Origin: Naegleria gruberi
Lineage: Eukaryota
Assembly: GCA_000004985.1 (NCBI GenBank)
Contig: GG738942.1
Length of the DNA: 44,269 bases
Reading direction: 5' to 3' (one strand)
Position numbers and translations under genes: made by a program. Shown piece after piece: positions 8,750-40,900 of the stretch. Numbering within the stretch: the first letter of the stretch is position 1; each line of letters opens with the position of its first letter. The notes beneath the pieces are model-generated. The model made no database searches. It saw only the letters and a list, made by a program, of their open reading frames with translations, and had not been told where the DNA came from.

Positions 8750-10999
8750 ATGAAACGAAAAGCAGGATTGCAACAGCTTCAGTCTGTTTCTAAGAGATTG
8801 GCCATTAATGGTAAATATTCAACTACTCACAACAAAGTTACTTCATTCGAAACTTCTGTTATTGGAAACAGGGAGCATAATGTTGAAAGTGATTTTATTC
8901 AAAAGGTGTATGATTGCATTGATATTGGAAATGGCGATTTTCATGTCAACTCCGATAGCAATATAGATAATACCTCCCTTAATGAACCCAATGAATCATC
9001 ATTTCAAAGAAATATATTTAGTGAGGAAGAGTATCAATTTTTAAGAGATTATTATCAAGATAATGATTGTTGTTCTAGAAAAGATGAAGATATTTTAAGC
9101 AACCACTCATTTACAAGTATTGAAAAGGTTGTTAACAATACGAAACTAGATGAATTGATGAAAAAACTATTAAGATTTGCAGTAAAAGCAAAGCTTACTG
9201 AGACATGTTTATCACAAGCCTTAGAATTATTCAAGGAATCATTTTCATCGTTTGGTATGATTTCAAGTTCAGATTTAGAACACTTTACCTTAAAAGGTTT
9301 CTATCAATATTTTTATATTAATCAAAAAACAAGACTCATACGATATTGTATGAAATGTAAAGAATATGAGAAAAATCAAAGTACATCCGCTTGTAGTTGT
9401 GGTAAGAAATGGAAAGAGTTACCAACCTATTGTTATTTAAGACCTCTAAAGTTCCAAATGGATGAGAGATTATTCTGGAATCCCTCTTTCAGAAATCAAT
9501 TTCAACAAGATATCAAAGAGATCAATGATAAAGATATTATTTCAGATCGTGTTCATGGATCAGTATATCAGAAATATCACCGTAAGGAATATGATGATGG
9601 TAAAACTGATTGCATAACCTTCTTTGGAGATTCTGTAAGCCCTTTTGGAACCAACACACATTCTTTCTATCAAGTTTCGTTCAATTTTACAGAAATGAAA
9701 CCCCATTATAGAAAAAAACAATCCAACAACTTTTTATGGTTTATGGTACCCAGAAAACCCGATCATGAAGAGATTAAGTTATTTTTGAAAATACTAATGG
9801 ATGATTTGAATCATTTTAATTCATTATCCAATCGGAAAATTCGCCTTGAAAGAATTGTATGTGATCTTCCAGCAAGATCTGAAATACTATTTTTCAAACA
9901 ATCTGGAGAGTATTTTTGTCATCTTTGTTTGATTAAGGGTGAAAGTGTAGAAATCAATACAACTAAGCAAACAAGGTATCCTTTATCAGTAGACCCACTT
10001 ACTGACCACTTTACACCACCTGCATACAGAACAAATGGGTATTGGAAAAAACAAAAATCTGATAATTTGGATCAAGGTATGAAATCAAAATCTCCAATTT
10101 TAAATCAAGATTGGAAGCCAACTCCCTCTCTAATATGTTGCTATGATTCTATGCATGTATTGTATGAAGGAATATTGCAGGATATGATGGCCATGATTCC
10201 AGTTTCTTATTGGGAGAAATTCGATCTCCTCTTCCTTAAACAAAAATATCCTTCATTTCTTCACAAACATCCTAGAAAAACAACTAATGGACAAACAATG
10301 AATAGTTTGAAAGCCATTGAAGTATATATGATAACTCATTATTATTTGGAATTATTTACTTGTATAGAAAATTATCAAGCAATTGAAAGAGAAGTTAATC
10401 TTATTCGCAGATTTGTTAATATCATAGATTCATTGACAGATTCATTCATATCTTCTGAATTGGATTCTATTGAACTTGAGCTTCTGCAGGTGTTAAAGGA
10501 TTATCAAGATATTGTCTCCGTAAAGAAGGCAACTCCAAATTTTCATATTTGCACTGAACTTGTTACATGCTGTAGATTATACGGCCCTTTGGCAATGAAT
10601 TCTGCCTTTATTGGAGAAGGACTTAATTTCACTCTTTCAAAAACATACGTCTGTTCCAATTCAGCAAGATATTCCATTATGTATTTTGATATGTGTCAAT
10701 TATGTGATCTTCTTGATCTGAATGAACACTTAAATTCAGGACAATGTGTTGTTGGCCACTATGTAGTGAGTAAGAAACGAGATGTTTTGATGGATACAAA
10801 AACAAAGAAGGTTTATCAGGTAGCGTCCTTTTCCGATGACTATAATTCTATACAGCTTGCAGCTATTGATGATCCAGAACGAATCATTGAGATATCAAGG
10901 AAAAAAGCATTTAAAATGCTTCCGTGTGTTGTTCTTGACTTTCCAAATAGGCCTAAAAAGTATATTCCAGTTCATTACAACACATATCAATACATTTAA
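8750..10999 (+). CDS. CACTA/EnSpm-superfamily transposase (TNP2 / Transposase_21-like, related to Plavaka/KDZ), intact 749-aa ORF. Either a mobile-element gene or a domesticated copy.
   Basis: Family-diagnostic blocks read from the translation. (1) N-terminal Cys-rich block YCMKCKEYEKNQSTSACSCGKKW...YCYLRPLKFQMDERLFWNPSFRNQ, which fits the transposase-associated pattern CP.C...C..C...R..P..PRLqrlF. (2) FFGDSVSPFGTNTHSFYQVSFNFTEMKPHYRKKQSNNFLWFMVPRKPDHEEIKLFLKILMDDLNHF, which fits TNP2 DG.NPF...HS.WPV...NLPP..R.K...i.L..liPGpk.P....d.YL.PLvdEL..LW. (3) DLPARSEILFFKQSGEYFCHLC, which fits DfPAygnlsGws.kG..aCp.C. (4) YDSMHVLYEGILQDMMAMIPVSYW, which fits d.MH...lnv...l...W. There are no internal stops. 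No CACTA-type TIRs were found flanking the ORF. Confidence 0.75.
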   Translation: MKRKAGLQQLQSVSKRLAINGKYSTTHNKVTSFETSVIGNREHNVESDFIQKVYDCIDIGNGDFHVNSDSNIDNTSLNEPNESSFQRNIFSEEEYQFLRDYYQDNDCCSRKDEDILSNHSFTSIEKVVNNTKLDELMKKLLRFAVKAKLTETCLSQALELFKESFSSFGMISSSDLEHFTLKGFYQYFYINQKTRLIRYCMKCKEYEKNQSTSACSCGKKWKELPTYCYLRPLKFQMDERLFWNPSFRNQFQQDIKEINDKDIISDRVHGSVYQKYHRKEYDDGKTDCITFFGDSVSPFGTNTHSFYQVSFNFTEMKPHYRKKQSNNFLWFMVPRKPDHEEIKLFLKILMDDLNHFNSLSNRKIRLERIVCDLPARSEILFFKQSGEYFCHLCLIKGESVEINTTKQTRYPLSVDPLTDHFTPPAYRTNGYWKKQKSDNLDQGMKSKSPILNQDWKPTPSLICCYDSMHVLYEGILQDMMAMIPVSYWEKFDLLFLKQKYPSFLHKHPRKTTNGQTMNSLKAIEVYMITHYYLELFTCIENYQAIEREVNLIRRFVNIIDSLTDSFISSELDSIELELLQVLKDYQDIVSVKKATPNFHICTELVTCCRLYGPLAMNSAFIGEGLNFTLSKTYVCSNSARYSIMYFDMCQLCDLLDLNEHLNSGQCVVGHYVVSKKRDVLMDTKTKKVYQVASFSDDYNSIQLAAIDDPERIIEISRKKAFKMLPCVVLDFPNRPKKYIPVHYNTYQYI

Positions 11000-11224
11000 T
11001 ACAGAGTTTATTAATTTCTTGACTATGCGAAATTTCACATTGTTTGAAAAAATTTACAAGTCAGAACATTTTGTTGGGCATTTCGCTCGGAGCGCAAAAA
11101 TCCATTAACAAAAAATCGTTAAAAGTCAAGCCAGCATTTGCGAAAAGGGTTTAGCGGGTATGTTAAAATAAATAAAACAAGCCAGAAACAAAATGACTCA
11201 ACATAAATCCCAAACTGGTCGCCA

Positions 11225-11327
11225 AAATAACTCCCAAACAAGTAGCCAAATTAAATATCAAAATAACTCCCAAACAAGTAGTCAAATTAAATCTCAAAAT
11301 AACCCCCCTAGTAGTCAAACCCCACAA
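11225..11327. repeat. 36-bp tandem repeat, about 2.8 copies, abutting an N run
   Basis: aaataactcccaaacaagtagccaaattaaatatca / aaataactcccaaacaagtagtcaaattaaatctca / aaataacccccctagtagtcaaacccc... Confidence 0.6.
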
Positions 11328-11377
11328 NNNNNNNNNNNNNNNNNNNNNNNNNNNNNNNNNNNNNNNNNNNNNNNNNN
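11328..11377. other. N run (50 nt), a gap of unknown true size. It must hide about 80 codons of the carbonic anhydrase C-terminus.
   Basis: The beta-CA frame ends ...[18 protein letters not shown] at the N run. The expected C-terminal helices are absent on the far side. Confidence 0.9.
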
Positions 11378-12537
11378 GCATCAACTTCTGCCTTGTGGAG
11401 ACGATAAACATCCTTAATATTTCTCAACCAGTGGTCAATTAAACCCAAATGCTTATTTGTCAAAGCAGCCATAACACCACCACAACGAGTGTGGCCCATA
11501 ACAATGACGTGTTTAACTTGCAAAACTTCAACAGCATATTGTAAAACTGACATGGCATTAACATCAGTATTGACAACCAAGTTGGCAACATTTCTGTGAA
11601 TGAAAATTTGACCTGGTTGGGTCTTGGTCAATTGATCAGGAGGTACACGACTATCACTGCAACCAATTAACATGTAATCTGGTTTTTGAACATCCTTGAT
11701 TCTATTGAAAAAGTCAGGATCAGAACCCAACTTGTCTGAAACAAATTCCTTATTGTTATTCAACAACTTTTCATAACTTTGTTGAGCAACAAGTTCTTCT
11801 TCAGTGAATTCTTCTTCGAATTGAATAGGTACATTAATACCAGCTGGTTTCTTTTGTAATAAACCTTCAATGGTGTAAGAAACATTAGGATCTGATGGTT
11901 CTGGACGAGAGAGATTTTGATTATTAGCAGCACTAAGTTGACTATAATCAATTTGATGGGAACAACCTGCTTCACCCAATGATGAAGTAGATGATTTCTT
12001 CTTAATACTAATACCAGAGACTTTCTTCTTTGTGTTATGAGAGGATCCCGAATTGAATTCTGATTCATCACCAGAAAGAGTATTTGGTGATACATCATTA
12101 ACAGTCAAGTGTTGTGCTTGTTGATGATTTCCACCACAACATTGGCCATTATGTTCGTGATGATGTTGTTCTTGTTGTTGATCTGCAGAAGAAGACATGA
12201 TTGTAGTTATAATTGTATGATGGCAAGAATCTTCGGAAGATGTTGTTTGCAAACGAGTGGAAGCTCCTCTTGGAAAGTGTGTTGTTGTCGAGTAGTTGTA
12301 GTAATACTTGTTATTGCTGTTATTGATAATATTGTTTATCAATACTGATGATAATGTTGTGGATGTTTGATTTTTCTTATTGTTTAAAAGAATCGGAAGC
12401 CTATTTTGAATAGTCAAGATATTTCTCTTGCTACCAACAGCAGCAGCAGAACTAACAACATTGGTGCGTGTTGTGTTTGATGTTGTTGAAGCAAGCAAGG
12501 AAGAAAAAGAAGCGCGGGATTGTTTGAAATTTTTCAT
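11378..12537 (-). CDS. Beta-class carbonic anhydrase (Nce103-like) with a ~300-aa S/T/N/Q-rich low-complexity N-terminal extension; 3' end truncated by the gap
   Basis: Catalytic signatures ...[19 protein letters not shown]...[11 protein letters not shown]...[18 protein letters not shown]...[13 protein letters not shown] (CxDSR and HxxCGG zinc ligands of beta-CAs). The start is placed at ATG 12537 ([50 protein letters not shown], presequence-like). The track ORF runs further upstream to 12822 but only via a non-ATG start. The extension contains a [25 protein letters not shown] cluster. Confidence 0.8.
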
Positions 12538-12929
12538 GCTATGTAATATTGTGCGAATAAATTGAAAGTTGTTGTTATAGCTTGTAATCTTGAGGTCGTC
12601 TGCAATTGACTTGATTTTTTTGAATTGAATTTCGAAATTAGAGGAATAAGGAGTGAGAATGTTGTGTTGGTATTTAAGAAGATTAAATTGACATTCTAAT
12701 AAATGGCGTAAGGTAATGCGTAAGGTATGGACATGCTGCAATTGAAGTGAAGATTCACTTGGAAAAAAAATAAAGTACGGAAAGAATGCAAATGCGGACC
12801 AAGGAATCCGTAGTGTGAACAAATATAAAAGGGTTGGAGTATTTTATTTGGAACAAGCGCAGGATCATTACTGTAAAATGAGATATTGGGCAGGTATGAA
12901 AAATGGTGAATTGAACAATCAGATGCTGT

Positions 12930-13595
12930 TTATTGTTGGGCATAGCAATTGGATGCCTTTGCAATTTGCAATAATTTTTCAATAGTATTGGATGAATTGA
13001 CCAATTCATTGTAAGCAATATCACCAACTTGTTGATTAATATCACCTTCAGAAATGGCCAACAAGTTAACAATCTTTGCCATTGCCATTCTATGAATCAA
13101 GACAAATATAAAATCACATGGACCTCTCAAATTATCAACTGTAGCAGCTCTCAATGAACAATCATCACCATAGGTAAGATTTTGAATGTCAGGTAATTGT
13201 TGCAATTGCAAAGATGAGAATAATCCAGAAAGTTGTTGTTCCATTTGAGTCATGTTTGCATTCAATTCTTGTAAAAGTGAAACTAATTGAGAATTGGAGG
13301 AATATTTGGAAATGGCTGATTGAGTGAGTGAGGCACCTTGTTTTTGGGAAGCTAGCATGATATTGAGCCAAAGAGCTGTAACATTGGCAGTGTCACTTTC
13401 AAGATAGGCTTGAAGAATTATTTCTGCTGGAAAGACTACTGACATGCTGGTGCTGCAATTCAATGGAAGTTTGATATCATTGGATTGATTGGAAGAGGTT
13501 GAGCTTGTTTGATCAGTACCTTGTTGTTGTTGTTGTTGGCAGGAAACAAGGATGGCTCCAAGAAGGAGACATGTTGCAATGAGAATTATTTTCAT
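12930..13595 (-). CDS. Secreted four-cysteine glycoprotein, paralog 1 (about 221 aa from the ATG); family not recognised
   Basis: Signal peptide MKIILIATCLLLGAILVSC, then a Q/S/T-rich linker. Conserved core shared with the adjacent gene: KLPLNCSTSMSVVFP.E..LQ, N-glycosylation sequons (NCS, NVT, NMT), GDDCSLRAATVDNLRGPCDFIFVLIHRMAMAK and IAYNEL. Start taken at the ATG (M9 of the track ORF, which begins at a TTG). Confidence 0.65.
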   Translation of the reverse strand: MKIILIATCLLLGAILVSCQQQQQQGTDQTSSTSSNQSNDIKLPLNCSTSMSVVFPAEIILQAYLESDTANVTALWLNIMLASQKQGASLTQSAISKYSSNSQLVSLLQELNANMTQMEQQLSGLFSSLQLQQLPDIQNLTYGDDCSLRAATVDNLRGPCDFIFVLIHRMAMAKIVNLLAISEGDINQQVGDIAYNELVNSSNTIEKLLQIAKASNCYAQQ

Positions 13596-13727
13596 TTTCT
13601 TGTGTGTTTCGAATAGCAAGTCAAAGTTTGAGAATTTATTTGGATTTCAAACCATACTCAAAATGAACAATGTGCAAAAACACCAAGTTTCAAAATAGAA
13701 AATACCATAAATAATGTTAAAAAAGAG

Positions 13728-14441
13728 TTACAATTGGAACTTTATATTCGAAACTCCTTGTTTCTCCTTACAAAACTTCTTACAAAGTTTGATAACATTG
13801 TAAACTTTTGGATAACTGCAAAAGTGTACCAATTGTCTTGAAGAAATAATCAATTCATTGTAAGCAATAGAAACAACTCTTTGGTCAACTCCGTTCAATG
13901 CCATAACCATAAGATTCATGGTTTTGGTCATGGACATACGATGAATTGAAATGAAGAGAAAATCGCATGGACCTCGAATGGAATCTAATGGAACTGCCCT
14001 TAGAGAACAATCATTTCCATAGACTAGTGCTTGCATTTCATTCATTGTAGGTAAATTAAGAGTGGTAAGTAATTCTTCTAGTTTAATTTTGGTTTCGGTT
14101 GCATTATTTTTCATTTCTTGCATTAAGGAGAGGAATTCTTGATTCGAATTTTGAGAGTTTAATCCAAATTCTGCCAATTCGATTCCTTCCCTTTTCGAGG
14201 CGATCATGAAATTTATCCAAAGAGAAGTAAAGTTGCTATTCGAATGTTTTTCATGTAAGAAAGATTGCAATAACAATTCAGTTGGAAACACAACTGACAT
14301 GCTAGTACTACAATTCAATGGAAGTTTTACATCTTCAACTTTCGAATAATTCTCAAAGTTTGAAGTGTTTCCAGAAACCTTTCGAATAGTTACAAATAAA
14401 CAGAACAAACCAACAATGAAGGGAATGAATACTCGTTGCAT
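13728..14441 (-). CDS. Secreted four-cysteine glycoprotein, paralog 2 (237 aa); tandem duplicate of 12930-13595
   Basis: MQRVFIPFIVGLFCLFVTIRKVSG signal-anchor-like N-terminus; VKLPLNCSTSMSVVFPTELLLQ ... GNDCSLRAVPLDSIRGPCDFLFISIHRMSMTK ... IAYNEL. About 35-40% identity to paralog 1 with conserved Cys spacing; same strand, 108 bp apart. Confidence 0.65.
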   Translation of the reverse strand: MQRVFIPFIVGLFCLFVTIRKVSGNTSNFENYSKVEDVKLPLNCSTSMSVVFPTELLLQSFLHEKHSNSNFTSLWINFMIASKREGIELAEFGLNSQNSNQEFLSLMQEMKNNATETKIKLEELLTTLNLPTMNEMQALVYGNDCSLRAVPLDSIRGPCDFLFISIHRMSMTKTMNLMVMALNGVDQRVVSIAYNELIISSRQLVHFCSYPKVYNVIKLCKKFCKEKQGVSNIKFQL

Positions 14442-14695
14442 TTTCTTGTAAAATAGAAATTCATCTTCTCATAGAATTAAGTTTTCAGATGATGAATATG
14501 TTCAATTATCAATTTTTATCAATTTACTAAATTGATAATTTTTCACTTACAGATCTTGTGAAAAGTTGTTTGAGAAAGATGGGTGAAGATTTTGCTCAAA
14601 TCAAAAACCGTAGTGTGAAAAAACCAATTCACTTGTCATCAAGTAAAATTCCTGTCATACTTCAACGTCAAAAATCAACAAAAAAAATACACCAA

Positions 14696-14776
14696 ATGTC
14701 TCACTACACCAACAAAAGCCAAGCAACCGTTCATGATAAGAATGGTTTACCAGTCTACGGTTTAGACAAGGAATTA
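14696..14776 (+). CDS. Calponin/transgelin (Scp1-like) actin-binding protein, exon 1
   Basis: ATG in an A-rich context (caaaATGtc). Exon ends ...GLPVYGLDKEL, followed by GTAAGT at 14777. Intron 14777-14821 (45 nt: gtaagtttctttctcttcccaacctaaactaaaactatacgaaag, with a branch-like ctaaac). Confidence 0.7.
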
Positions 14777-14821
14777 GTAAGTTTCTTTCTCTTCCCAACC
14801 TAAACTAAAACTATACGAAAG

Positions 14822-15673
14822 GCCAAAAAACAAGCAGGAAAACACGATCCACAGAAAGAAAAAGAAGTCAGACAATGGATCGAAGCAGTCACTGGCACCA
14901 AATTCTCCTCCAACGACTTTCAAGAATCACTCAAAGATGGCGTTTTATTGTGTAAACTTGCCAACAAGATTAAACCAGGAATTGTGAAAACCATCAACTC
15001 TGGTAAGATGCCATTCATGTGTATGGAGAATATTGGTTATTTCTTGAAGGCAGCTGCAGAATTAGGTTTAGATACTCATAACACATTTATGAGTGTTGAT
15101 TTATATGAGGGAAAAAACATTCCACTCGTAATTATGGCCTTATATAGTTTTGGATCAGTTGTTCAGAAGAGAGTTGGATATAATTTACCTACTTTGGGAT
15201 TGAAGATTTCTGATAAGAAGGAAATTGAATTTACTGAAAGACAATTGAGACAAGCAAATGCTGAAGTTGGTCAACAATTTGGAGCTGCTTCAGTTAAACA
15301 TGATACTGGAAGATCAATCTCAAAGGAGGTTGTTAAAGTGAATAACACTGGTGATTCAAGAGTTTTCTCACAACAAACAGGAGGATCTGTCAAACACGAC
15401 ACTGGTCGTTCCATTTCACATGAAGTTGTAAAGGTAAATAATACTGGAGATTCTAGAGTCTTCTCTCAACAAACTGGTGGGTCAATCAAGCACGACACTG
15501 GTCGTTCCATCTCGAATGAAGTTGTTAAAATCAAACCATCAACTTCAACATCAAGCAAATCAAGTTCTGGATCAAATTTGGATGAATTGGAAAAGCTTGG
15601 TAATTTAAGAGACAAGGGAATTATCACTGAAAGAGAATTCCAACTCAAGAAGAAACAACTTTTAGGATTGTAA
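14822..15673 (+). CDS. Calponin/transgelin (Scp1-like) protein, exon 2: CH domain, three calponin-like repeats and a SHOCT-like C-terminal motif
   Basis: The spliced product reads ...DKEL|AKKQAGKHDPQKEKEVRQWIEAVTGTKFSSNDFQESLKDGVLLCKLANKIKPGIVKTINSGKMPFMCMENIGYFLKAAAELGLDTHNTFMSVDLYEGKNIPLVIMALYSF... This is the classic transgelin/calponin N-terminus and CH domain (WIE..G..F...LKDGvvLCkL.N). Then come 3 x VKHDTGRSISxEVVKVNNTGDSRVFSQQTGGS, and the protein ends SNLDELEKLGNLRDKGIITEREFQLKKKQLLGL. Confidence 0.8.
   Translation, partial: AKKQAGKHDPQKEKEVRQWIEAVTGTKFSSNDFQESLKDGVLLCKLANKIKPGIVKTINSGKMPFMCMENIGYFLKAAAELGLDTHNTFMSVDLYEGKNIPLVIMALYSFGSVVQKRVGYNLPTLGLKISDKKEIEFTERQLRQANAEVGQQFGAASVKHDTGRSISKEVVKVNNTGDSRVFSQQTGGSVKHDTGRSISHEVVKVNNTGDSRVFSQQTGGSIKHDTGRSISNEVVKIKPSTSTSSKSSSGSNLDELEKLGNLRDKGIITEREFQLKKKQLLGL
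15293..15545 (+). repeat. In-frame 96-bp tandem repeat, about 2.6 copies, encoding calponin-like (CLIK) repeats
   Basis: Units start at 15293, 15389 and 15485 and encode VKHDTGRSIS(K/H/N)EVVKVNNTGDSRVFSQQTGGS. Confidence 0.75.
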
Positions 15674-16114
15674 TTTTACAAATCTCAAAATTTTTCTAAC
15701 TGTGTGAAAACTATAAATTGTATATTATTCTAAATATTGGATTTGCTCATAAAATTTTTAATCAATTCAATCATGGATAGCATTCATCTCATCTTCCCAA
15801 AGTTGAGATTCTAATCGTGAAGAATTGTTCCATGGAAATGGTACAAGTTCACAAAATTAATTCACAATTGTTTTGAAGCAAATCAAACAGGTTTCCATTG
15901 TAACTTGCAGATAGATTGTTAGAGTTTGGAATCCAATACATTACAAGCAACAATACACAAACTCAAAAATCTCCAAAACAATTTTGTTTGTGCGTTCCAA
16001 ACGTGCCAAAAATAATTCAAAAATATTTGCTCCTCTGCTAGAAAGGCGATACAAAAAAACAGCACAACACCTCCTACTAACATGAGTCTATTCTTTGATG
16101 CTTCCTTCTTCGAT

Positions 16115-28100: not shown

Positions 28101-31100
28101 NNNNNNNNNNNNNNNNNNNNNNNNNNNNNNNNNNNNNNNNNNNNNNNNNNNNNNNNNNNNNNNNNNNNNNNNNNNNNNNNNNNNNNNNNNNNNNNNNNNN
28201 NNNNNNNNNNNNNNNNNNNNNNNNNNNNNNNNNNNNNNNNNNNNNNNNNNNNNNNNNNNNNNNNNNNNNNNNNNNNNNNNNNNNNNNNNNNNNNNNNNNN
28301 NNNNNNNNNNNNNNNNNNNNNNNNNNNNNNNNNNNNNNNNNNNNNNNNNNNNNNNNNNNNNNNNNNNNNNNNNNNNNNNNNNNNNNNNNNNNNNNNNNNN
28401 NNNNNNNNNNNNNNNNNNNNNNNNNNNNNNNNNNNNNNNNNNNNNNNNNNNNNNNNNNNNNNNNNNNNNNNNNNNNNNNNNNNNNNNNNNNNNNNNNNNN
28501 NNNNNNNNNNNNNNNNNNNNNNNNNNNNNNNNNNNNNNNNNNNNNNNNNNNNNNNNNNNNNNNNNNNNNNNNNNNNNNNNNNNNNNNNNNNNNNNNNNNN
28601 NNNNNNNNNNNNNNNNNNNNNNNNNNNNNNNNNNNNNNNNNNNNNNNNNNNNNNNNNNNNNNNNNNNNNNNNNNNNNNNNNNNNNNNNNNNNNNNNNNNN
28701 NNNNNNNNNNNNNNNNNNNNNNNNNNNNNNNNNNNNNNNNNNNNNNNNNNNNNNNNNNNNNNNNNNNNNNNNNNNNNNNNNNNNNNNNNNNNNNNNNNNN
28801 NNNNNNNNNNNNNNNNNNNNNNNNNNNNNNNNNNNNNNNNNNNNNNNNNNNNNNNNNNNNNNNNNNNNNNNNNNNNNNNNNNNNNNNNNNNNNNNNNNNN
28901 NNNNNNNNNNNNNNNNNNNNNNNNNNNNNNNNNNNNNNNNNNNNNNNNNNNNNNNNNNNNNNNNNNNNNNNNNNNNNNNNNNNNNNNNNNNNNNNNNNNN
29001 NNNNNNNNNNNNNNNNNNNNNNNNNNNNNNNNNNNNNNNNNNNNNNNNNNNNNNNNNNNNNNNNNNNNNNNNNNNNNNNNNNNNNNNNNNNNNNNNNNNN
29101 NNNNNNNNNNNNNNNNNNNNNNNNNNNNNNNNNNNNNNNNNNNNNNNNNNNNNNNNNNNNNNNNNNNNNNNNNNNNNNNNNNNNNNNNNNNNNNNNNNNN
29201 NNNNNNNNNNNNNNNNNNNNNNNNNNNNNNNNNNNNNNNNNNNNNNNNNNNNNNNNNNNNNNNNNNNNNNNNNNNNNNNNNNNNNNNNNNNNNNNNNNNN
29301 NNNNNNNNNNNNNNNNNNNNNNNNNNNNNNNNNNNNNNNNNNNNNNNNNNNNNNNNNNNNNNNNNNNNNNNNNNNNNNNNNNNNNNNNNNNNNNNNNNNN
29401 NNNNNNNNNNNNNNNNNNNNNNNNNNNNNNNNNNNNNNNNNNNNNNNNNNNNNNNNNNNNNNNNNNNNNNNNNNNNNNNNNNNNNNNNNNNNNNNNNNNN
29501 NNNNNNNNNNNNNNNNNNNNNNNNNNNNNNNNNNNNNNNNNNNNNNNNNNNNNNNNNNNNNNNNNNNNNNNNNNNNNNNNNNNNNNNNNNNNNNNNNNNN
29601 NNNNNNNNNNNNNNNNNNNNNNNNNNNNNNNNNNNNNNNNNNNNNNNNNNNNNNNNNNNNNNNNNNNNNNNNNNNNNNNNNNNNNNNNNNNNNNNNNNNN
29701 NNNNNNNNNNNNNNNNNNNNNNNNNNNNNNNNNNNNNNNNNNNNNNNNNNNNNNNNNNNNNNNNNNNNNNNNNNNNNNNNNNNNNNNNNNNNNNNNNNNN
29801 NNNNNNNNNNNNNNNNNNNNNNNNNNNNNNNNNNNNNNNNNNNNNNNNNNNNNNNNNNNNNNNNNNNNNNNNNNNNNNNNNNNNNNNNNNNNNNNNNNNN
29901 NNNNNNNNNNNNNNNNNNNNNNNNNNNNNNNNNNNNNNNNNNNNNNNNNNNNNNNNNNNNNNNNNNNNNNNNNNNNNNNNNNNNNNNNNNNNNNNNNNNN
30001 NNNNNNNNNNNNNNNNNNNNNNNNNNNNNNNNNNNNNNNNNNNNNNNNNNNNNNNNNNNNNNNNNNNNNNNNNNNNNNNNNNNNNNNNNNNNNNNNNNNN
30101 NNNNNNNNNNNNNNNNNNNNNNNNNNNNNNNNNNNNNNNNNNNNNNNNNNNNNNNNNNNNNNNNNNNNNNNNNNNNNNNNNNNNNNNNNNNNNNNNNNNN
30201 NNNNNNNNNNNNNNNNNNNNNNNNNNNNNNNNNNNNNNNNNNNNNNNNNNNNNNNNNNNNNNNNNNNNNNNNNNNNNNNNNNNNNNNNNNNNNNNNNNNN
30301 NNNNNNNNNNNNNNNNNNNNNNNNNNNNNNNNNNNNNNNNNNNNNNNNNNNNNNNNNNNNNNNNNNNNNNNNNNNNNNNNNNNNNNNNNNNNNNNNNNNN
30401 NNNNNNNNNNNNNNNNNNNNNNNNNNNNNNNNNNNNNNNNNNNNNNNNNNNNNNNNNNNNNNNNNNNNNNNNNNNNNNNNNNNNNNNNNNNNNNNNNNNN
30501 NNNNNNNNNNNNNNNNNNNNNNNNNNNNNNNNNNNNNNNNNNNNNNNNNNNNNNNNNNNNNNNNNNNNNNNNNNNNNNNNNNNNNNNNNNNNNNNNNNNN
30601 NNNNNNNNNNNNNNNNNNNNNNNNNNNNNNNNNNNNNNNNNNNNNNNNNNNNNNNNNNNNNNNNNNNNNNNNNNNNNNNNNNNNNNNNNNNNNNNNNNNN
30701 NNNNNNNNNNNNNNNNNNNNNNNNNNNNNNNNNNNNNNNNNNNNNNNNNNNNNNNNNNNNNNNNNNNNNNNNNNNNNNNNNNNNNNNNNNNNNNNNNNNN
30801 NNNNNNNNNNNNNNNNNNNNNNNNNNNNNNNNNNNNNNNNNNNNNNNNNNNNNNNNNNNNNNNNNNNNNNNNNNNNNNNNNNNNNNNNNNNNNNNNNNNN
30901 NNNNNNNNNNNNNNNNNNNNNNNNNNNNNNNNNNNNNNNNNNNNNNNNNNNNNNNNNNNNNNNNNNNNNNNNNNNNNNNNNNNNNNNNNNNNNNNNNNNN
31001 NNNNNNNNNNNNNNNNNNNNNNNNNNNNNNNNNNNNNNNNNNNNNNNNNNNNNNNNNNNNNNNNNNNNNNNNNNNNNNNNNNNNNNNNNNNNNNNNNNNN

Positions 31101-34100
31101 NNNNNNNNNNNNNNNNNNNNNNNNNNNNNNNNNNNNNNNNNNNNNNNNNNNNNNNNNNNNNNNNNNNNNNNNNNNNNNNNNNNNNNNNNNNNNNNNNNNN
31201 NNNNNNNNNNNNNNNNNNNNNNNNNNNNNNNNNNNNNNNNNNNNNNNNNNNNNNNNNNNNNNNNNNNNNNNNNNNNNNNNNNNNNNNNNNNNNNNNNNNN
31301 NNNNNNNNNNNNNNNNNNNNNNNNNNNNNNNNNNNNNNNNNNNNNNNNNNNNNNNNNNNNNNNNNNNNNNNNNNNNNNNNNNNNNNNNNNNNNNNNNNNN
31401 NNNNNNNNNNNNNNNNNNNNNNNNNNNNNNNNNNNNNNNNNNNNNNNNNNNNNNNNNNNNNNNNNNNNNNNNNNNNNNNNNNNNNNNNNNNNNNNNNNNN
31501 NNNNNNNNNNNNNNNNNNNNNNNNNNNNNNNNNNNNNNNNNNNNNNNNNNNNNNNNNNNNNNNNNNNNNNNNNNNNNNNNNNNNNNNNNNNNNNNNNNNN
31601 NNNNNNNNNNNNNNNNNNNNNNNNNNNNNNNNNNNNNNNNNNNNNNNNNNNNNNNNNNNNNNNNNNNNNNNNNNNNNNNNNNNNNNNNNNNNNNNNNNNN
31701 NNNNNNNNNNNNNNNNNNNNNNNNNNNNNNNNNNNNNNNNNNNNNNNNNNNNNNNNNNNNNNNNNNNNNNNNNNNNNNNNNNNNNNNNNNNNNNNNNNNN
31801 NNNNNNNNNNNNNNNNNNNNNNNNNNNNNNNNNNNNNNNNNNNNNNNNNNNNNNNNNNNNNNNNNNNNNNNNNNNNNNNNNNNNNNNNNNNNNNNNNNNN
31901 NNNNNNNNNNNNNNNNNNNNNNNNNNNNNNNNNNNNNNNNNNNNNNNNNNNNNNNNNNNNNNNNNNNNNNNNNNNNNNNNNNNNNNNNNNNNNNNNNNNN
32001 NNNNNNNNNNNNNNNNNNNNNNNNNNNNNNNNNNNNNNNNNNNNNNNNNNNNNNNNNNNNNNNNNNNNNNNNNNNNNNNNNNNNNNNNNNNNNNNNNNNN
32101 NNNNNNNNNNNNNNNNNNNNNNNNNNNNNNNNNNNNNNNNNNNNNNNNNNNNNNNNNNNNNNNNNNNNNNNNNNNNNNNNNNNNNNNNNNNNNNNNNNNN
32201 NNNNNNNNNNNNNNNNNNNNNNNNNNNNNNNNNNNNNNNNNNNNNNNNNNNNNNNNNNNNNNNNNNNNNNNNNNNNNNNNNNNNNNNNNNNNNNNNNNNN
32301 NNNNNNNNNNNNNNNNNNNNNNNNNNNNNNNNNNNNNNNNNNNNNNNNNNNNNNNNNNNNNNNNNNNNNNNNNNNNNNNNNNNNNNNNNNNNNNNNNNNN
32401 NNNNNNNNNNNNNNNNNNNNNNNNNNNNNNNNNNNNNNNNNNNNNNNNNNNNNNNNNNNNNNNNNNNNNNNNNNNNNNNNNNNNNNNNNNNNNNNNNNNN
32501 NNNNNNNNNNNNNNNNNNNNNNNNNNNNNNNNNNNNNNNNNNNNNNNNNNNNNNNNNNNNNNNNNNNNNNNNNNNNNNNNNNNNNNNNNNNNNNNNNNNN
32601 NNNNNNNNNNNNNNNNNNNNNNNNNNNNNNNNNNNNNNNNNNNNNNNNNNNNNNNNNNNNNNNNNNNNNNNNNNNNNNNNNNNNNNNNNNNNNNNNNNNN
32701 NNNNNNNNNNNNNNNNNNNNNNNNNNNNNNNNNNNNNNNNNNNNNNNNNNNNNNNNNNNNNNNNNNNNNNNNNNNNNNNNNNNNNNNNNNNNNNNNNNNN
32801 NNNNNNNNNNNNNNNNNNNNNNNNNNNNNNNNNNNNNNNNNNNNNNNNNNNNNNNNNNNNNNNNNNNNNNNNNNNNNNNNNNNNNNNNNNNNNNNNNNNN
32901 NNNNNNNNNNNNNNNNNNNNNNNNNNNNNNNNNNNNNNNNNNNNNNNNNNNNNNNNNNNNNNNNNNNNNNNNNNNNNNNNNNNNNNNNNNNNNNNNNNNN
33001 NNNNNNNNNNNNNNNNNNNNNNNNNNNNNNNNNNNNNNNNNNNNNNNNNNNNNNNNNNNNNNNNNNNNNNNNNNNNNNNNNNNNNNNNNNNNNNNNNNNN
33101 NNNNNNNNNNNNNNNNNNNNNNNNNNNNNNNNNNNNNNNNNNNNNNNNNNNNNNNNNNNNNNNNNNNNNNNNNNNNNNNNNNNNNNNNNNNNNNNNNNNN
33201 NNNNNNNNNNNNNNNNNNNNNNNNNNNNNNNNNNNNNNNNNNNNNNNNNNNNNNNNNNNNNNNNNNNNNNNNNNNNNNNNNNNNNNNNNNNNNNNNNNNN
33301 NNNNNNNNNNNNNNNNNNNNNNNNNNNNNNNNNNNNNNNNNNNNNNNNNNNNNNNNNNNNNNNNNNNNNNNNNNNNNNNNNNNNNNNNNNNNNNNNNNNN
33401 NNNNNNNNNNNNNNNNNNNNNNNNNNNNNNNNNNNNNNNNNNNNNNNNNNNNNNNNNNNNNNNNNNNNNNNNNNNNNNNNNNNNNNNNNNNNNNNNNNNN
33501 NNNNNNNNNNNNNNNNNNNNNNNNNNNNNNNNNNNNNNNNNNNNNNNNNNNNNNNNNNNNNNNNNNNNNNNNNNNNNNNNNNNNNNNNNNNNNNNNNNNN
33601 NNNNNNNNNNNNNNNNNNNNNNNNNNNNNNNNNNNNNNNNNNNNNNNNNNNNNNNNNNNNNNNNNNNNNNNNNNNNNNNNNNNNNNNNNNNNNNNNNNNN
33701 NNNNNNNNNNNNNNNNNNNNNNNNNNNNNNNNNNNNNNNNNNNNNNNNNNNNNNNNNNNNNNNNNNNNNNNNNNNNNNNNNNNNNNNNNNNNNNNNNNNN
33801 NNNNNNNNNNNNNNNNNNNNNNNNNNNNNNNNNNNNNNNNNNNNNNNNNNNNNNNNNNNNNNNNNNNNNNNNNNNNNNNNNNNNNNNNNNNNNNNNNNNN
33901 NNNNNNNNNNNNNNNNNNNNNNNNNNNNNNNNNNNNNNNNNNNNNNNNNNNNNNNNNNNNNNNNNNNNNNNNNNNNNNNNNNNNNNNNNNNNNNNNNNNN
34001 NNNNNNNNNNNNNNNNNNNNNNNNNNNNNNNNNNNNNNNNNNNNNNNNNNNNNNNNNNNNNNNNNNNNNNNNNNNNNNNNNNNNNNNNNNNNNNNNNNNN

Positions 34101-36037
34101 NNNNNNNNNNNNNNNNNNNNNNNNNNNNNNNNNNNNNNNNNNNNNNNNNNNNNNNNNNNNNNNNNNNNNNNNNNNNNNNNNNNNNNNNNNNNNNNNNNNN
34201 NNNNNNNNNNNNNNNNNNNNNNNNNNNNNNNNNNNNNNNNNNNNNNNNNNNNNNNNNNNNNNNNNNNNNNNNNNNNNNNNNNNNNNNNNNNNNNNNNNNN
34301 NNNNNNNNNNNNNNNNNNNNNNNNNNNNNNNNNNNNNNNNNNNNNNNNNNNNNNNNNNNNNNNNNNNNNNNNNNNNNNNNNNNNNNNNNNNNNNNNNNNN
34401 NNNNNNNNNNNNNNNNNNNNNNNNNNNNNNNNNNNNNNNNNNNNNNNNNNNNNNNNNNNNNNNNNNNNNNNNNNNNNNNNNNNNNNNNNNNNNNNNNNNN
34501 NNNNNNNNNNNNNNNNNNNNNNNNNNNNNNNNNNNNNNNNNNNNNNNNNNNNNNNNNNNNNNNNNNNNNNNNNNNNNNNNNNNNNNNNNNNNNNNNNNNN
34601 NNNNNNNNNNNNNNNNNNNNNNNNNNNNNNNNNNNNNNNNNNNNNNNNNNNNNNNNNNNNNNNNNNNNNNNNNNNNNNNNNNNNNNNNNNNNNNNNNNNN
34701 NNNNNNNNNNNNNNNNNNNNNNNNNNNNNNNNNNNNNNNNNNNNNNNNNNNNNNNNNNNNNNNNNNNNNNNNNNNNNNNNNNNNNNNNNNNNNNNNNNNN
34801 NNNNNNNNNNNNNNNNNNNNNNNNNNNNNNNNNNNNNNNNNNNNNNNNNNNNNNNNNNNNNNNNNNNNNNNNNNNNNNNNNNNNNNNNNNNNNNNNNNNN
34901 NNNNNNNNNNNNNNNNNNNNNNNNNNNNNNNNNNNNNNNNNNNNNNNNNNNNNNNNNNNNNNNNNNNNNNNNNNNNNNNNNNNNNNNNNNNNNNNNNNNN
35001 NNNNNNNNNNNNNNNNNNNNNNNNNNNNNNNNNNNNNNNNNNNNNNNNNNNNNNNNNNNNNNNNNNNNNNNNNNNNNNNNNNNNNNNNNNNNNNNNNNNN
35101 NNNNNNNNNNNNNNNNNNNNNNNNNNNNNNNNNNNNNNNNNNNNNNNNNNNNNNNNNNNNNNNNNNNNNNNNNNNNNNNNNNNNNNNNNNNNNNNNNNNN
35201 NNNNNNNNNNNNNNNNNNNNNNNNNNNNNNNNNNNNNNNNNNNNNNNNNNNNNNNNNNNNNNNNNNNNNNNNNNNNNNNNNNNNNNNNNNNNNNNNNNNN
35301 NNNNNNNNNNNNNNNNNNNNNNNNNNNNNNNNNNNNNNNNNNNNNNNNNNNNNNNNNNNNNNNNNNNNNNNNNNNNNNNNNNNNNNNNNNNNNNNNNNNN
35401 NNNNNNNNNNNNNNNNNNNNNNNNNNNNNNNNNNNNNNNNNNNNNNNNNNNNNNNNNNNNNNNNNNNNNNNNNNNNNNNNNNNNNNNNNNNNNNNNNNNN
35501 NNNNNNNNNNNNNNNNNNNNNNNNNNNNNNNNNNNNNNNNNNNNNNNNNNNNNNNNNNNNNNNNNNNNNNNNNNNNNNNNNNNNNNNNNNNNNNNNNNNN
35601 NNNNNNNNNNNNNNNNNNNNNNNNNNNNNNNNNNNNNNNNNNNNNNNNNNNNNNNNNNNNNNNNNNNNNNNNNNNNNNNNNNNNNNNNNNNNNNNNNNNN
35701 NNNNNNNNNNNNNNNNNNNNNNNNNNNNNNNNNNNNNNNNNNNNNNNNNNNNNNNNNNNNNNNNNNNNNNNNNNNNNNNNNNNNNNNNNNNNNNNNNNNN
35801 NNNNNNNNNNNNNNNNNNNNNNNNNNNNNNNNNNNNNNNNNNNNNNNNNNNNNNNNNNNNNNNNNNNNNNNNNNNNNNNNNNNNNNNNNNNNNNNNNNNN
35901 NNNNNNNNNNNNNNNNNNNNNNNNNNNNNNNNNNNNNNNNNNNNNNNNNNNNNNNNNNNNNNNNNNNNNNNNNNNNNNNNNNNNNNNNNNNNNNNNNNNN
36001 NNNNNNNNNNNNNNNNNNNNNNNNNNNNNNNNNNNNN
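16115..36037. other. N run of 19,923 nt, a scaffold gap. It hides the C-terminus of the dephospho-CoA kinase gene and whatever lies 3' of the calponin gene.
   Basis: Unbroken n characters. An ATG at 16082 (MSLFFDASFFD) opens a frame into it. The minus-strand DPCK exon 3 runs into it from the other side. Confidence 0.95.
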
Positions 36038-37920: not shown

Positions 37921-40900
37921 NNNNNNNNNNNNNNNNNNNNNNNNNNNNNNNNNNNNNNNNNNNNNNNNNNNNNNNNNNNNNNNNNNNNNNNNNNNNNNNN
38001 NNNNNNNNNNNNNNNNNNNNNNNNNNNNNNNNNNNNNNNNNNNNNNNNNNNNNNNNNNNNNNNNNNNNNNNNNNNNNNNNNNNNNNNNNNNNNNNNNNNN
38101 NNNNNNNNNNNNNNNNNNNNNNNNNNNNNNNNNNNNNNNNNNNNNNNNNNNNNNNNNNNNNNNNNNNNNNNNNNNNNNNNNNNNNNNNNNNNNNNNNNNN
38201 NNNNNNNNNNNNNNNNNNNNNNNNNNNNNNNNNNNNNNNNNNNNNNNNNNNNNNNNNNNNNNNNNNNNNNNNNNNNNNNNNNNNNNNNNNNNNNNNNNNN
38301 NNNNNNNNNNNNNNNNNNNNNNNNNNNNNNNNNNNNNNNNNNNNNNNNNNNNNNNNNNNNNNNNNNNNNNNNNNNNNNNNNNNNNNNNNNNNNNNNNNNN
38401 NNNNNNNNNNNNNNNNNNNNNNNNNNNNNNNNNNNNNNNNNNNNNNNNNNNNNNNNNNNNNNNNNNNNNNNNNNNNNNNNNNNNNNNNNNNNNNNNNNNN
38501 NNNNNNNNNNNNNNNNNNNNNNNNNNNNNNNNNNNNNNNNNNNNNNNNNNNNNNNNNNNNNNNNNNNNNNNNNNNNNNNNNNNNNNNNNNNNNNNNNNNN
38601 NNNNNNNNNNNNNNNNNNNNNNNNNNNNNNNNNNNNNNNNNNNNNNNNNNNNNNNNNNNNNNNNNNNNNNNNNNNNNNNNNNNNNNNNNNNNNNNNNNNN
38701 NNNNNNNNNNNNNNNNNNNNNNNNNNNNNNNNNNNNNNNNNNNNNNNNNNNNNNNNNNNNNNNNNNNNNNNNNNNNNNNNNNNNNNNNNNNNNNNNNNNN
38801 NNNNNNNNNNNNNNNNNNNNNNNNNNNNNNNNNNNNNNNNNNNNNNNNNNNNNNNNNNNNNNNNNNNNNNNNNNNNNNNNNNNNNNNNNNNNNNNNNNNN
38901 NNNNNNNNNNNNNNNNNNNNNNNNNNNNNNNNNNNNNNNNNNNNNNNNNNNNNNNNNNNNNNNNNNNNNNNNNNNNNNNNNNNNNNNNNNNNNNNNNNNN
39001 NNNNNNNNNNNNNNNNNNNNNNNNNNNNNNNNNNNNNNNNNNNNNNNNNNNNNNNNNNNNNNNNNNNNNNNNNNNNNNNNNNNNNNNNNNNNNNNNNNNN
39101 NNNNNNNNNNNNNNNNNNNNNNNNNNNNNNNNNNNNNNNNNNNNNNNNNNNNNNNNNNNNNNNNNNNNNNNNNNNNNNNNNNNNNNNNNNNNNNNNNNNN
39201 NNNNNNNNNNNNNNNNNNNNNNNNNNNNNNNNNNNNNNNNNNNNNNNNNNNNNNNNNNNNNNNNNNNNNNNNNNNNNNNNNNNNNNNNNNNNNNNNNNNN
39301 NNNNNNNNNNNNNNNNNNNNNNNNNNNNNNNNNNNNNNNNNNNNNNNNNNNNNNNNNNNNNNNNNNNNNNNNNNNNNNNNNNNNNNNNNNNNNNNNNNNN
39401 NNNNNNNNNNNNNNNNNNNNNNNNNNNNNNNNNNNNNNNNNNNNNNNNNNNNNNNNNNNNNNNNNNNNNNNNNNNNNNNNNNNNNNNNNNNNNNNNNNNN
39501 NNNNNNNNNNNNNNNNNNNNNNNNNNNNNNNNNNNNNNNNNNNNNNNNNNNNNNNNNNNNNNNNNNNNNNNNNNNNNNNNNNNNNNNNNNNNNNNNNNNN
39601 NNNNNNNNNNNNNNNNNNNNNNNNNNNNNNNNNNNNNNNNNNNNNNNNNNNNNNNNNNNNNNNNNNNNNNNNNNNNNNNNNNNNNNNNNNNNNNNNNNNN
39701 NNNNNNNNNNNNNNNNNNNNNNNNNNNNNNNNNNNNNNNNNNNNNNNNNNNNNNNNNNNNNNNNNNNNNNNNNNNNNNNNNNNNNNNNNNNNNNNNNNNN
39801 NNNNNNNNNNNNNNNNNNNNNNNNNNNNNNNNNNNNNNNNNNNNNNNNNNNNNNNNNNNNNNNNNNNNNNNNNNNNNNNNNNNNNNNNNNNNNNNNNNNN
39901 NNNNNNNNNNNNNNNNNNNNNNNNNNNNNNNNNNNNNNNNNNNNNNNNNNNNNNNNNNNNNNNNNNNNNNNNNNNNNNNNNNNNNNNNNNNNNNNNNNNN
40001 NNNNNNNNNNNNNNNNNNNNNNNNNNNNNNNNNNNNNNNNNNNNNNNNNNNNNNNNNNNNNNNNNNNNNNNNNNNNNNNNNNNNNNNNNNNNNNNNNNNN
40101 NNNNNNNNNNNNNNNNNNNNNNNNNNNNNNNNNNNNNNNNNNNNNNNNNNNNNNNNNNNNNNNNNNNNNNNNNNNNNNNNNNNNNNNNNNNNNNNNNNNN
40201 NNNNNNNNNNNNNNNNNNNNNNNNNNNNNNNNNNNNNNNNNNNNNNNNNNNNNNNNNNNNNNNNNNNNNNNNNNNNNNNNNNNNNNNNNNNNNNNNNNNN
40301 NNNNNNNNNNNNNNNNNNNNNNNNNNNNNNNNNNNNNNNNNNNNNNNNNNNNNNNNNNNNNNNNNNNNNNNNNNNNNNNNNNNNNNNNNNNNNNNNNNNN
40401 NNNNNNNNNNNNNNNNNNNNNNNNNNNNNNNNNNNNNNNNNNNNNNNNNNNNNNNNNNNNNNNNNNNNNNNNNNNNNNNNNNNNNNNNNNNNNNNNNNNN
40501 NNNNNNNNNNNNNNNNNNNNNNNNNNNNNNNNNNNNNNNNNNNNNNNNNNNNNNNNNNNNNNNNNNNNNNNNNNNNNNNNNNNNNNNNNNNNNNNNNNNN
40601 NNNNNNNNNNNNNNNNNNNNNNNNNNNNNNNNNNNNNNNNNNNNNNNNNNNNNNNNNNNNNNNNNNNNNNNNNNNNNNNNNNNNNNNNNNNNNNNNNNNN
40701 NNNNNNNNNNNNNNNNNNNNNNNNNNNNNNNNNNNNNNNNNNNNNNNNNNNNNNNNNNNNNNNNNNNNNNNNNNNNNNNNNNNNNNNNNNNNNNNNNNNN
40801 NNNNNNNNNNNNNNNNNNNNNNNNNNNNNNNNNNNNNNNNNNNNNNNNNNNNNNNNNNNNNNNNNNNNNNNNNNNNNNNNNNNNNNNNNNNNNNNNNNNN

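Follow-up and report, generated by a model that had tools for sequence, protein, structure and literature searches.

The question raised by this locus is whether an intact 749-codon open reading frame (ORF) of Naegleria gruberi is part of a transposon or a transposase gene that has been taken over by the host. The ORF lies on the plus strand at positions 8750..10999 of a 44,269-nucleotide stretch of contig GG738942.1 (assembly GCA_000004985.1), the whole of which we refer to as the window. The initial annotation assigned its product to the CACTA/EnSpm transposases and left two readings, a domesticated single-copy gene and an element with ends located further out. We conclude that, very probably, positions 6114-11158 comprise a structurally intact, autonomous class II DNA transposon, one of a Naegleria-wide lineage within the CMC/CMCT group (CACTA/EnSpm, Mirage and Chapaev, with a distant relationship to Transib/RAG1). 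The transposase gene itself is intronless and, as initially annotated, undamaged, running from ATG to TAA free of stops, and is embedded in DNA of ~30-33% G+C.

Where, then, does the element end? A perfect 9-bp terminal inverted repeat, CCCGCTAAA at 6114..6122 on the plus strand and TTTAGCGGG (as read on the plus strand) at 11150..11158 on the minus strand, delimits 5,045 bp between two convergent host genes, an NmrA-like gene on the left, with its stop at 6019, and a beta-carbonic-anhydrase-like gene on the minus strand on the right, with its stop near 11308. Such repeats had not been found in the readable flanks at first; their detection at 6114 and 11158 bears out the second of the two initial readings, that of an element with more distant ends and A-rich subterminal repeats. 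We place the boundaries here because this CCCGCTAAA pair, the sole exact inverted pair in the window, sits where sister elements predict the ends. Indeed, the first 5-6 bases of the left end are common to both element families of Naegleria lovaniensis described below, the termini of the window element and of both these families read CCCGC(T)...(A)GCGGG, the right end lies 159 bp past the transposase stop (~107-190 bp in N. lovaniensis), and the gene order and end-to-ORF distances agree with those of the multi-copy N. lovaniensis elements. The flanking A/T was considered as an additional part of the inverted repeat and rejected as inconsistent between copies.

Inside these ends, the motif TT[G/A]ACG is clustered, with 9 of the 10 sites falling in the terminal 500 bp (binomial P ~8e-9), concentrated in ~360 bp at the left end of the element and ~100 bp at the right, and both N. 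lovaniensis families display the same clustering within their first 210-280 bp. The left subterminal region (6123..6480) contains TTGACG and TTAACG in both orientations, along with a 47-nt imperfect palindrome (6292-6338 / 6367-6413), whereas the right one (11060..11149) contains TTAACG-type and GCGAAAA motifs. The A-rich motifs at ~6170-6400 and 11090-11130, previously put forward as candidate subterminal repeats, are part of these clusters.

The second gene of the locus also belongs to the element. It had been described as a host-like gene diverging from the transposase gene at a distance of 110 bp; divergent it is, across a spacer of 111 bp (8639..8749), but not host-like. Because homologous and colinear ORF1s are present in four other elements, this gene (ORF1; 7155..8638, minus strand) is, by sequence comparison, the accessory gene of the transposon. 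ORF1 encodes ~490 aa, read as 290 aa + 205 aa, is interrupted only by a 50-N gap (7786-7835), and consists of a conserved N-terminal domain, a coiled coil and a Lys-rich tail. Outside N. lovaniensis, divergent ORF1/transposase pairs are carried by a 5,050-bp contig of GCA_050043615.1 (L013) and by a metagenome contig of ENA ERZ929261 (L014); at position 214 of L013, CCCGC is followed by TTAACG-type repeats, the inferred left end of that element. The window ORF1 is homologous to and colinear with the divergent ORF1 of L014 (42.5% identity, E 3e-62) and matches those of L013 (E 2e-11), of N. lovaniensis family 1 (E 7.5e-6) and, in its C-terminal part, of family 2 (E 9e-7), so that ORF1 is conserved in five element lineages. 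The equivalent spacers measure 171 bp in N. lovaniensis, 116 bp in L013 and 134 bp in L014, and the 111-bp spacer is presumed to be a bidirectional promoter. Beyond the ORF1s of these elements, no Pfam domain, PDB sequence match or database homologue of ORF1 was found. The weak bZIP/DivIC matches of ORF1 are confined to the coiled coil, and the idea of a bZIP protein binding TGACG-like repeats was accordingly dropped, save as speculation. From its position and the anatomy of the element, ORF1 might nevertheless be a TnpA-like protein that binds the subterminal repeats.

Two families in N. lovaniensis show what such elements look like when present in many copies. We examined 11 loci (L001-L011), which together contain ~60 kb of element sequence; these are not all the copies in the genome. 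Family 1 accounts for 9 loci, namely, an identical 751-aa protein on three contigs and six loci encoding variants of at least 90% identity. Its full-length copies share a 5.9-kb block, 99.5-99.9% identical, which starts with CCCGCTACTCGCGG, ends with CCATGAGAAGCGGG and always includes the divergent gene, which ends 171 bp short of the transposase start; partial copies and a deletion derivative, the latter occurring three times, are 98.2-99.8% identical over the retained parts. Family 2 (transposase P0158), 7.1 kb in length and found at 2 loci, is 100% identical over 7,060 bp and has the same layout and CCCGC...GCGGG ends. Altogether, the N. lovaniensis copies occupy at least 11 sites in different gene neighbourhoods, all with the divergent ORF1/transposase pair. 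Of 10 N. lovaniensis copies, 6 are flanked by duplications of 2 bp (AA, TG, GA, TC, TT, AT; P ~3e-5 at the base composition of the window); the other 4 lack an intact duplication, and imperfect ones are also found among copies that are >99% identical. Target duplications of 3 bp or more were rejected for these copies, given that only 2 bp fits.

These findings bear directly on the first of the initial readings, under which the ORF would be a domesticated, single-copy transposase gene, immobile and selected by the host. A single visible copy in the window, with its ORF intact but without an intact target duplication, is what such a gene would look like, and the protein itself is modified, with the His-to-Glu change in the zinc motif and the degenerate WP/NELPP blocks discussed below. 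Nonetheless, we find domestication very unlikely because the ends are kept, in the form of perfect inverted repeats at the termini and clusters of subterminal repeats, because ORF1 accompanies the transposase in five lineages, and because the nearest relatives, in N. lovaniensis, are multi-copy, near-identical and non-syntenic. A domesticated transposase is expected to have lost its ends and to have a single syntenic orthologue, and neither is seen here. Moreover, the N. lovaniensis NmrA orthologue has no such element closer than 10 kb, although the right flank is non-syntenic, so that this is not a strict empty site. In N. gruberi, the 100-aa gene model NAEGRDRAFT_75874 (P0016), which is 98.9% identical to residues 480-572 (93 aa) of the ORF, is recorded on a 158.6-kb scaffold, whereas the NmrA orthologue (P0164), 98% identical to the NmrA-like protein of the window, is assigned to a 326.8-kb one; the separate scaffolds hint at a different or additional insertion site.

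The family to which the transposase belongs is less obvious than its motifs suggest. The window ORF shows no match to the Pfam models Transposase_21, DUF4218, Transpos_assoc or KDZ (Kyakuja-Dileera-Zisupton), even at E values up to 10, and hence does not reach the Transposase_21 gathering cut-off of 28.6 bits. Judged by this search, which the initial annotation had named as the check on its CACTA/EnSpm assignment and by whose outcome it had agreed to stand or fall, the assignment fails. It holds, however, at the level of the CMC (CACTA/EnSpm-Mirage-Chapaev) group because deeper profile searches link the window ORF to Transposase_21/DUF1258 proteins. Against Transposase_21, the N. lovaniensis paralogue P0158, 45% identical to the window ORF, scores 27.7 bits (E 1.9e-6), and the N. 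gruberi protein P0008 scores 16.2 bits (E 0.006). A word-indexed homologue search returned a sole match, the 751-aa hypothetical protein of N. lovaniensis (46% identity), whereas a two-sequence profile run against 1.84 billion representatives yielded 646 matches at E<=1e-3, including 152 at E<=1e-10. In an alignment of 50 sequences (the window ORF, 2 other Naegleria proteins and 47 full-length remote relatives), 45 match Transposase_21 (best 5e-17) and DUF1258 (best 3e-18), 9 match DUF4218, and 2 weakly match Plavaka (E 0.0011); these are the four Pfam families matched in all, and none of the 50 matches the KDZ models. Conversely, a hidden Markov model built from the 47 non-Naegleria relatives gives the window ORF 165 bits. 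The homology with CMC-group transposases is thus established, transitively and reciprocally.

The same searches address the possibility that the element represents the KDZ or Plavaka lineage rather than CMC proper. KDZ had been named as an option early on, and there is some common ground with Plavaka, given the 2 weak matches and the fact that PlavakaA also gives 2-bp duplications (PMC12730594). This origin is highly improbable, though: set against the absence of KDZ matches are the 45 sequences matching both Transposase_21 and DUF1258, KDZ elements produce duplications of 7-8 bp (PMC12730594), which the Naegleria elements lack, and Plavaka termini are TGT..ACA or CATCA..TGATG, unlike CCCGC.

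A CMC affiliation is also apparent in the protein motifs, most of which are readable as initially quoted, namely, the Cys cluster, D294, P298-F299, H304-S305, R321, D372-L-P-A...C390..C393 and D466-S-M-H469. The 'WPV' and 'NLPP' of the quoted core, by contrast, are absent from the window protein, where the block reads SFYQVSFNFTEMKPHYR. The Cys cluster (C200, C203, C215, C217; 9347..9400, plus strand) resembles a zinc ribbon, with a conservation of 94% or more across the 50 aligned sequences; when the family profile was compared with PDB sequences, there was no RAG1 match and only a weak zinc-ribbon signal, of the eL43 type. Downstream, the putative RNase H-like DDE catalytic core with its zinc-binding insertion spans 9605..10669 on the plus strand. 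All 50 aligned sequences share D294 (9629-9631), D372 (9863-9865), C390 (9917-9919), C393 (9926-9928), H469 (10154-10156), N597, H599 (10544-10546) and E623 (10616-10618), in the motif order D...D-C(2)C...MH...H(3)H...E. Position 603 (10556-10558) is His in 47 of the 50 sequences and Glu or Asp in just the 3 Naegleria proteins, E603 of the window protein standing in place of the second His of the family. This change in a presumed metal ligand is specific to the Naegleria lineage, and it need not mean inactivation because the multi-copy N. lovaniensis family has Asp at the same position.

Structure prediction is consistent with this picture. AlphaFold2 with the 50-sequence alignment produced a model with a pLDDT of 81.4 and a pTM of 0.78, whereas a 2-sequence alignment gave a pLDDT of 32 and an unusable model. 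In the former, D294 is on strand 286-296, D372 comes right after strand 363-371, and helix 620-636 contains E623, a predicted arrangement that is RNase H-like. The beta-rich C-terminal domain (aa 660-745; 10727..10984, plus strand) may form a Tudor/SH3-like barrel.

Several observations weigh against an intact CMC-group transposon. Apart from the failure of the window protein to match Pfam directly, the WP and NELPP family blocks are degenerate, H(3)H has a Glu in place of its second His, the element lacks 5′-CA...TG-3′ termini, and ORF1 has no recognisable DNA-binding domain. The flanks of the window copy read CA | TA, so that the duplication is not intact. Furthermore, a single copy is visible, a count that covers the window; within it, four long N runs (953-2009, 4029-5084, 16115-36037, 37921-42812) take up ~27 kb of 44 kb and render any copies or genes there invisible.

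Some of these features would fit an old, immobile relic that still looks complete but has lost its activity, for instance, through the His-to-Glu change or the damaged target site, with decay yet to come. The inverted repeat of the window element, which matches over 9 bp only, and the presence in N. gruberi of several fragmentary, diverged relatives with 40-67% identity point in the same direction as the imperfect duplication. A relic is unlikely, if by no means negligible, considering that two long ORFs (749 aa and ~490 aa) have remained free of stops in DNA of ~30% G+C and that every invariant catalytic residue is retained. Moreover, the acidic residue at 603 is common to the evidently recently amplified N. 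lovaniensis family, and copies >99% identical show imperfect duplications, too.

Taking the element as an intact transposon, we infer its chemistry, zinc binding, promoter and the function of ORF1 as follows. The 111-bp divergent spacer would drive both genes. The 749-aa protein would act as a DDE transposase with an RNase H-like core (D294, D372, E623) split by an insertion domain, the zinc site of which would be formed by C390/C393 and H599/E603, as in RAG1. The N-terminal zinc ribbon and a helical region would recognise the element ends, and the transposase would bind the CCCGCT termini, excise the element and reinsert it at a target cut with a 2-bp stagger. The ~490-aa ORF1 product, a lineage-specific accessory protein, may be the counterpart of TnpA in En/Spm, binding the TT[G/A]ACG repeats and helping to pair the ends.

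How does such an element compare with known systems? With CACTA/En-Spm of plants, fungi and animals (Pfam Transposase_21, tnp2), it shares the order of the DDE motifs, profile-level homology, and the organization of an autonomous element with two genes, short terminal inverted repeats and clusters of subterminal repeats. The second element protein and the clustered repeats are thus as in canonical CACTA elements, whereas the defining ends and duplication are not: the termini are CCCGC(T), rather than CACTA/CAC, and the target duplication in the N. lovaniensis sister families is 2 bp, rather than 3 bp, so that the CACTA-type ends and 3-bp duplications anticipated at first give way to CCCGC...GCGGG and 2 bp. 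In addition, the window protein stays under the Pfam threshold, the sequence of ORF1 is unrelated to any described accessory protein, an acidic residue occupies the position of the second zinc His, and there is the probable C-terminal Tudor/SH3-like barrel. The two genes of the Naegleria elements diverge from a spacer of ~110 bp, whereas maize En/Spm makes its two products by alternative splicing of the transcripts of a single unit.

The transposase resembles those of RAG1, ProtoRAG and Transib in having a Cys-x2-Cys ~18 residues past the second Asp and a His motif ~20-24 residues before the Glu; the zinc site of RAG1 consists of C727/C730/H937/H942. Conversely, the Naegleria family has no sequence-level match to RAG1, the element encodes no RAG2-like partner, and its ends and duplication length differ from those of Transib/ProtoRAG, which generate 5-bp target duplications. 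The likeness to Mirage and Chapaev consists in the joint matches to Transposase_21 and DUF1258, the latter being the Pfam model for the nematode proteins of these lineages, which we take to be linked to Mirage, and in the short, 2-4 bp target duplications of this group; that of Mirage is 2 bp. Chapaev transposases carry the motifs C(2)C, LH and H(4)H, and the elements have target duplications of 3-4 bp and invariable CAC...GTG termini (PMC4079192), which are not found in the Naegleria elements. Across the CMCT group, target duplications are 2-5 bp and termini are 5′-CA...TG-3′ 'in most cases' (PMC12730594). Of the traits by which members of this group are recognised, the window element displays profile homology, the catalytic/zinc motif in a modified form (603 is E or D in Naegleria) and a predicted RNase H-like fold of the RAG1/Transib type. 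Its termini differ, and a target duplication of fitting length, 2 bp, is seen in the 6 N. lovaniensis copies but is not intact in the window copy.

It is possible, and we suggest this tentatively, that the Naegleria elements, including that in the window, the two N. lovaniensis families, L013, L014 and the diverged N. gruberi fragments, constitute a distinct, unnamed CMCT lineage of the same rank as Plavaka, ESTA or Lanisha. Its marks would be the CCCGC termini as opposed to CA...TG, the 2-bp duplication, the acidic residue in place of the second zinc His, the C-terminal Tudor/SH3-like barrel, and a divergent accessory protein without known relatives that recognises TT[G/A]ACG.

The presence of the CMC-EnSpm class in the genus is already on record, albeit without description. 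In N. lovaniensis, RepeatModeler reported 38 'CMC-EnSpm' hits totalling 69,762 bp (PMC6125883, Table 3), and these repeats are very probably the same families as those at L001-L011 because 69.8 kb is about the size expected for the latter (~60 kb in 11 loci). That report gives an automated class label and totals; it neither delimits the elements nor describes their genes or termini, and it has no such data on N. gruberi. No published account of the structure of these elements was found in the literature, a search that did not extend to Repbase. For N. gruberi, the reference annotation misses most of the transposase gene, and the models P0011 and P0014 (adjacent), P0013, P0161, P0162 and P0008 are fragments of diverged relatives.

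The remaining features concern the surroundings of the genes and copies. Between the left subterminal repeats and the ORF1 stop, the window element contains internal AT-rich direct repeats of ~166 bp (6598..6940, with 6618-6714 and 6784-6880 being 87% identical), which are non-coding and probably represent the 3′ untranslated region or a spacer of ORF1; a tblastx comparison with sister elements detected no conserved third gene or ORF in the left arm (1-2.8 kb). Just beyond the right end, three 36-bp tandem units (CAAAATAACTCCCAAACAAGTAG...) occupy 11199-11294, ahead of the carbonic-anhydrase-like gene and of the N run into which the right flank had been seen to disappear after 11327, a 50-N gap at 11328-11377. 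In N. lovaniensis, a 422-bp insertion resembling a miniature inverted-repeat transposable element, with the ends TATGGCGGCGCA... and ...GCGCCGCCATA, sits within the right subterminal region of a family 2 copy (L010 8509-8930) and is absent from the otherwise identical L011. At L003, a 6.5-kb palindrome with 99.6% identity (12352-18837) extends from the right end of the element to the contig end, mirroring an ATPase and a short-chain dehydrogenase gene, with a second, inverted element terminus beginning at the contig end; this could be either a real inverted duplication between two copies or a palindrome artefact of long reads.

Naegleria genomes are compact and repeat-poor, with a repeat content of 2.5-5% (PMC6125883). 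Within this setting, the window element, a divergent member of the CACTA/Mirage/Chapaev group, is neatly built but unexceptional among mobile elements, and it leaves current knowledge of how such elements work unchanged. What it does change is the annotation, given that the N. gruberi reference includes only a 100-aa model of the transposase and that the accessory gene resembles a host gene. In a genus to which the pathogen N. fowleri also belongs, an apparently functional element of this kind would be a candidate for use in insertional mutagenesis or as a strain marker. Finally, it adds a representative from a deep-branching excavate to the CACTA/Transib/RAG1 transposases, one that comes with a natural variant of the zinc site.

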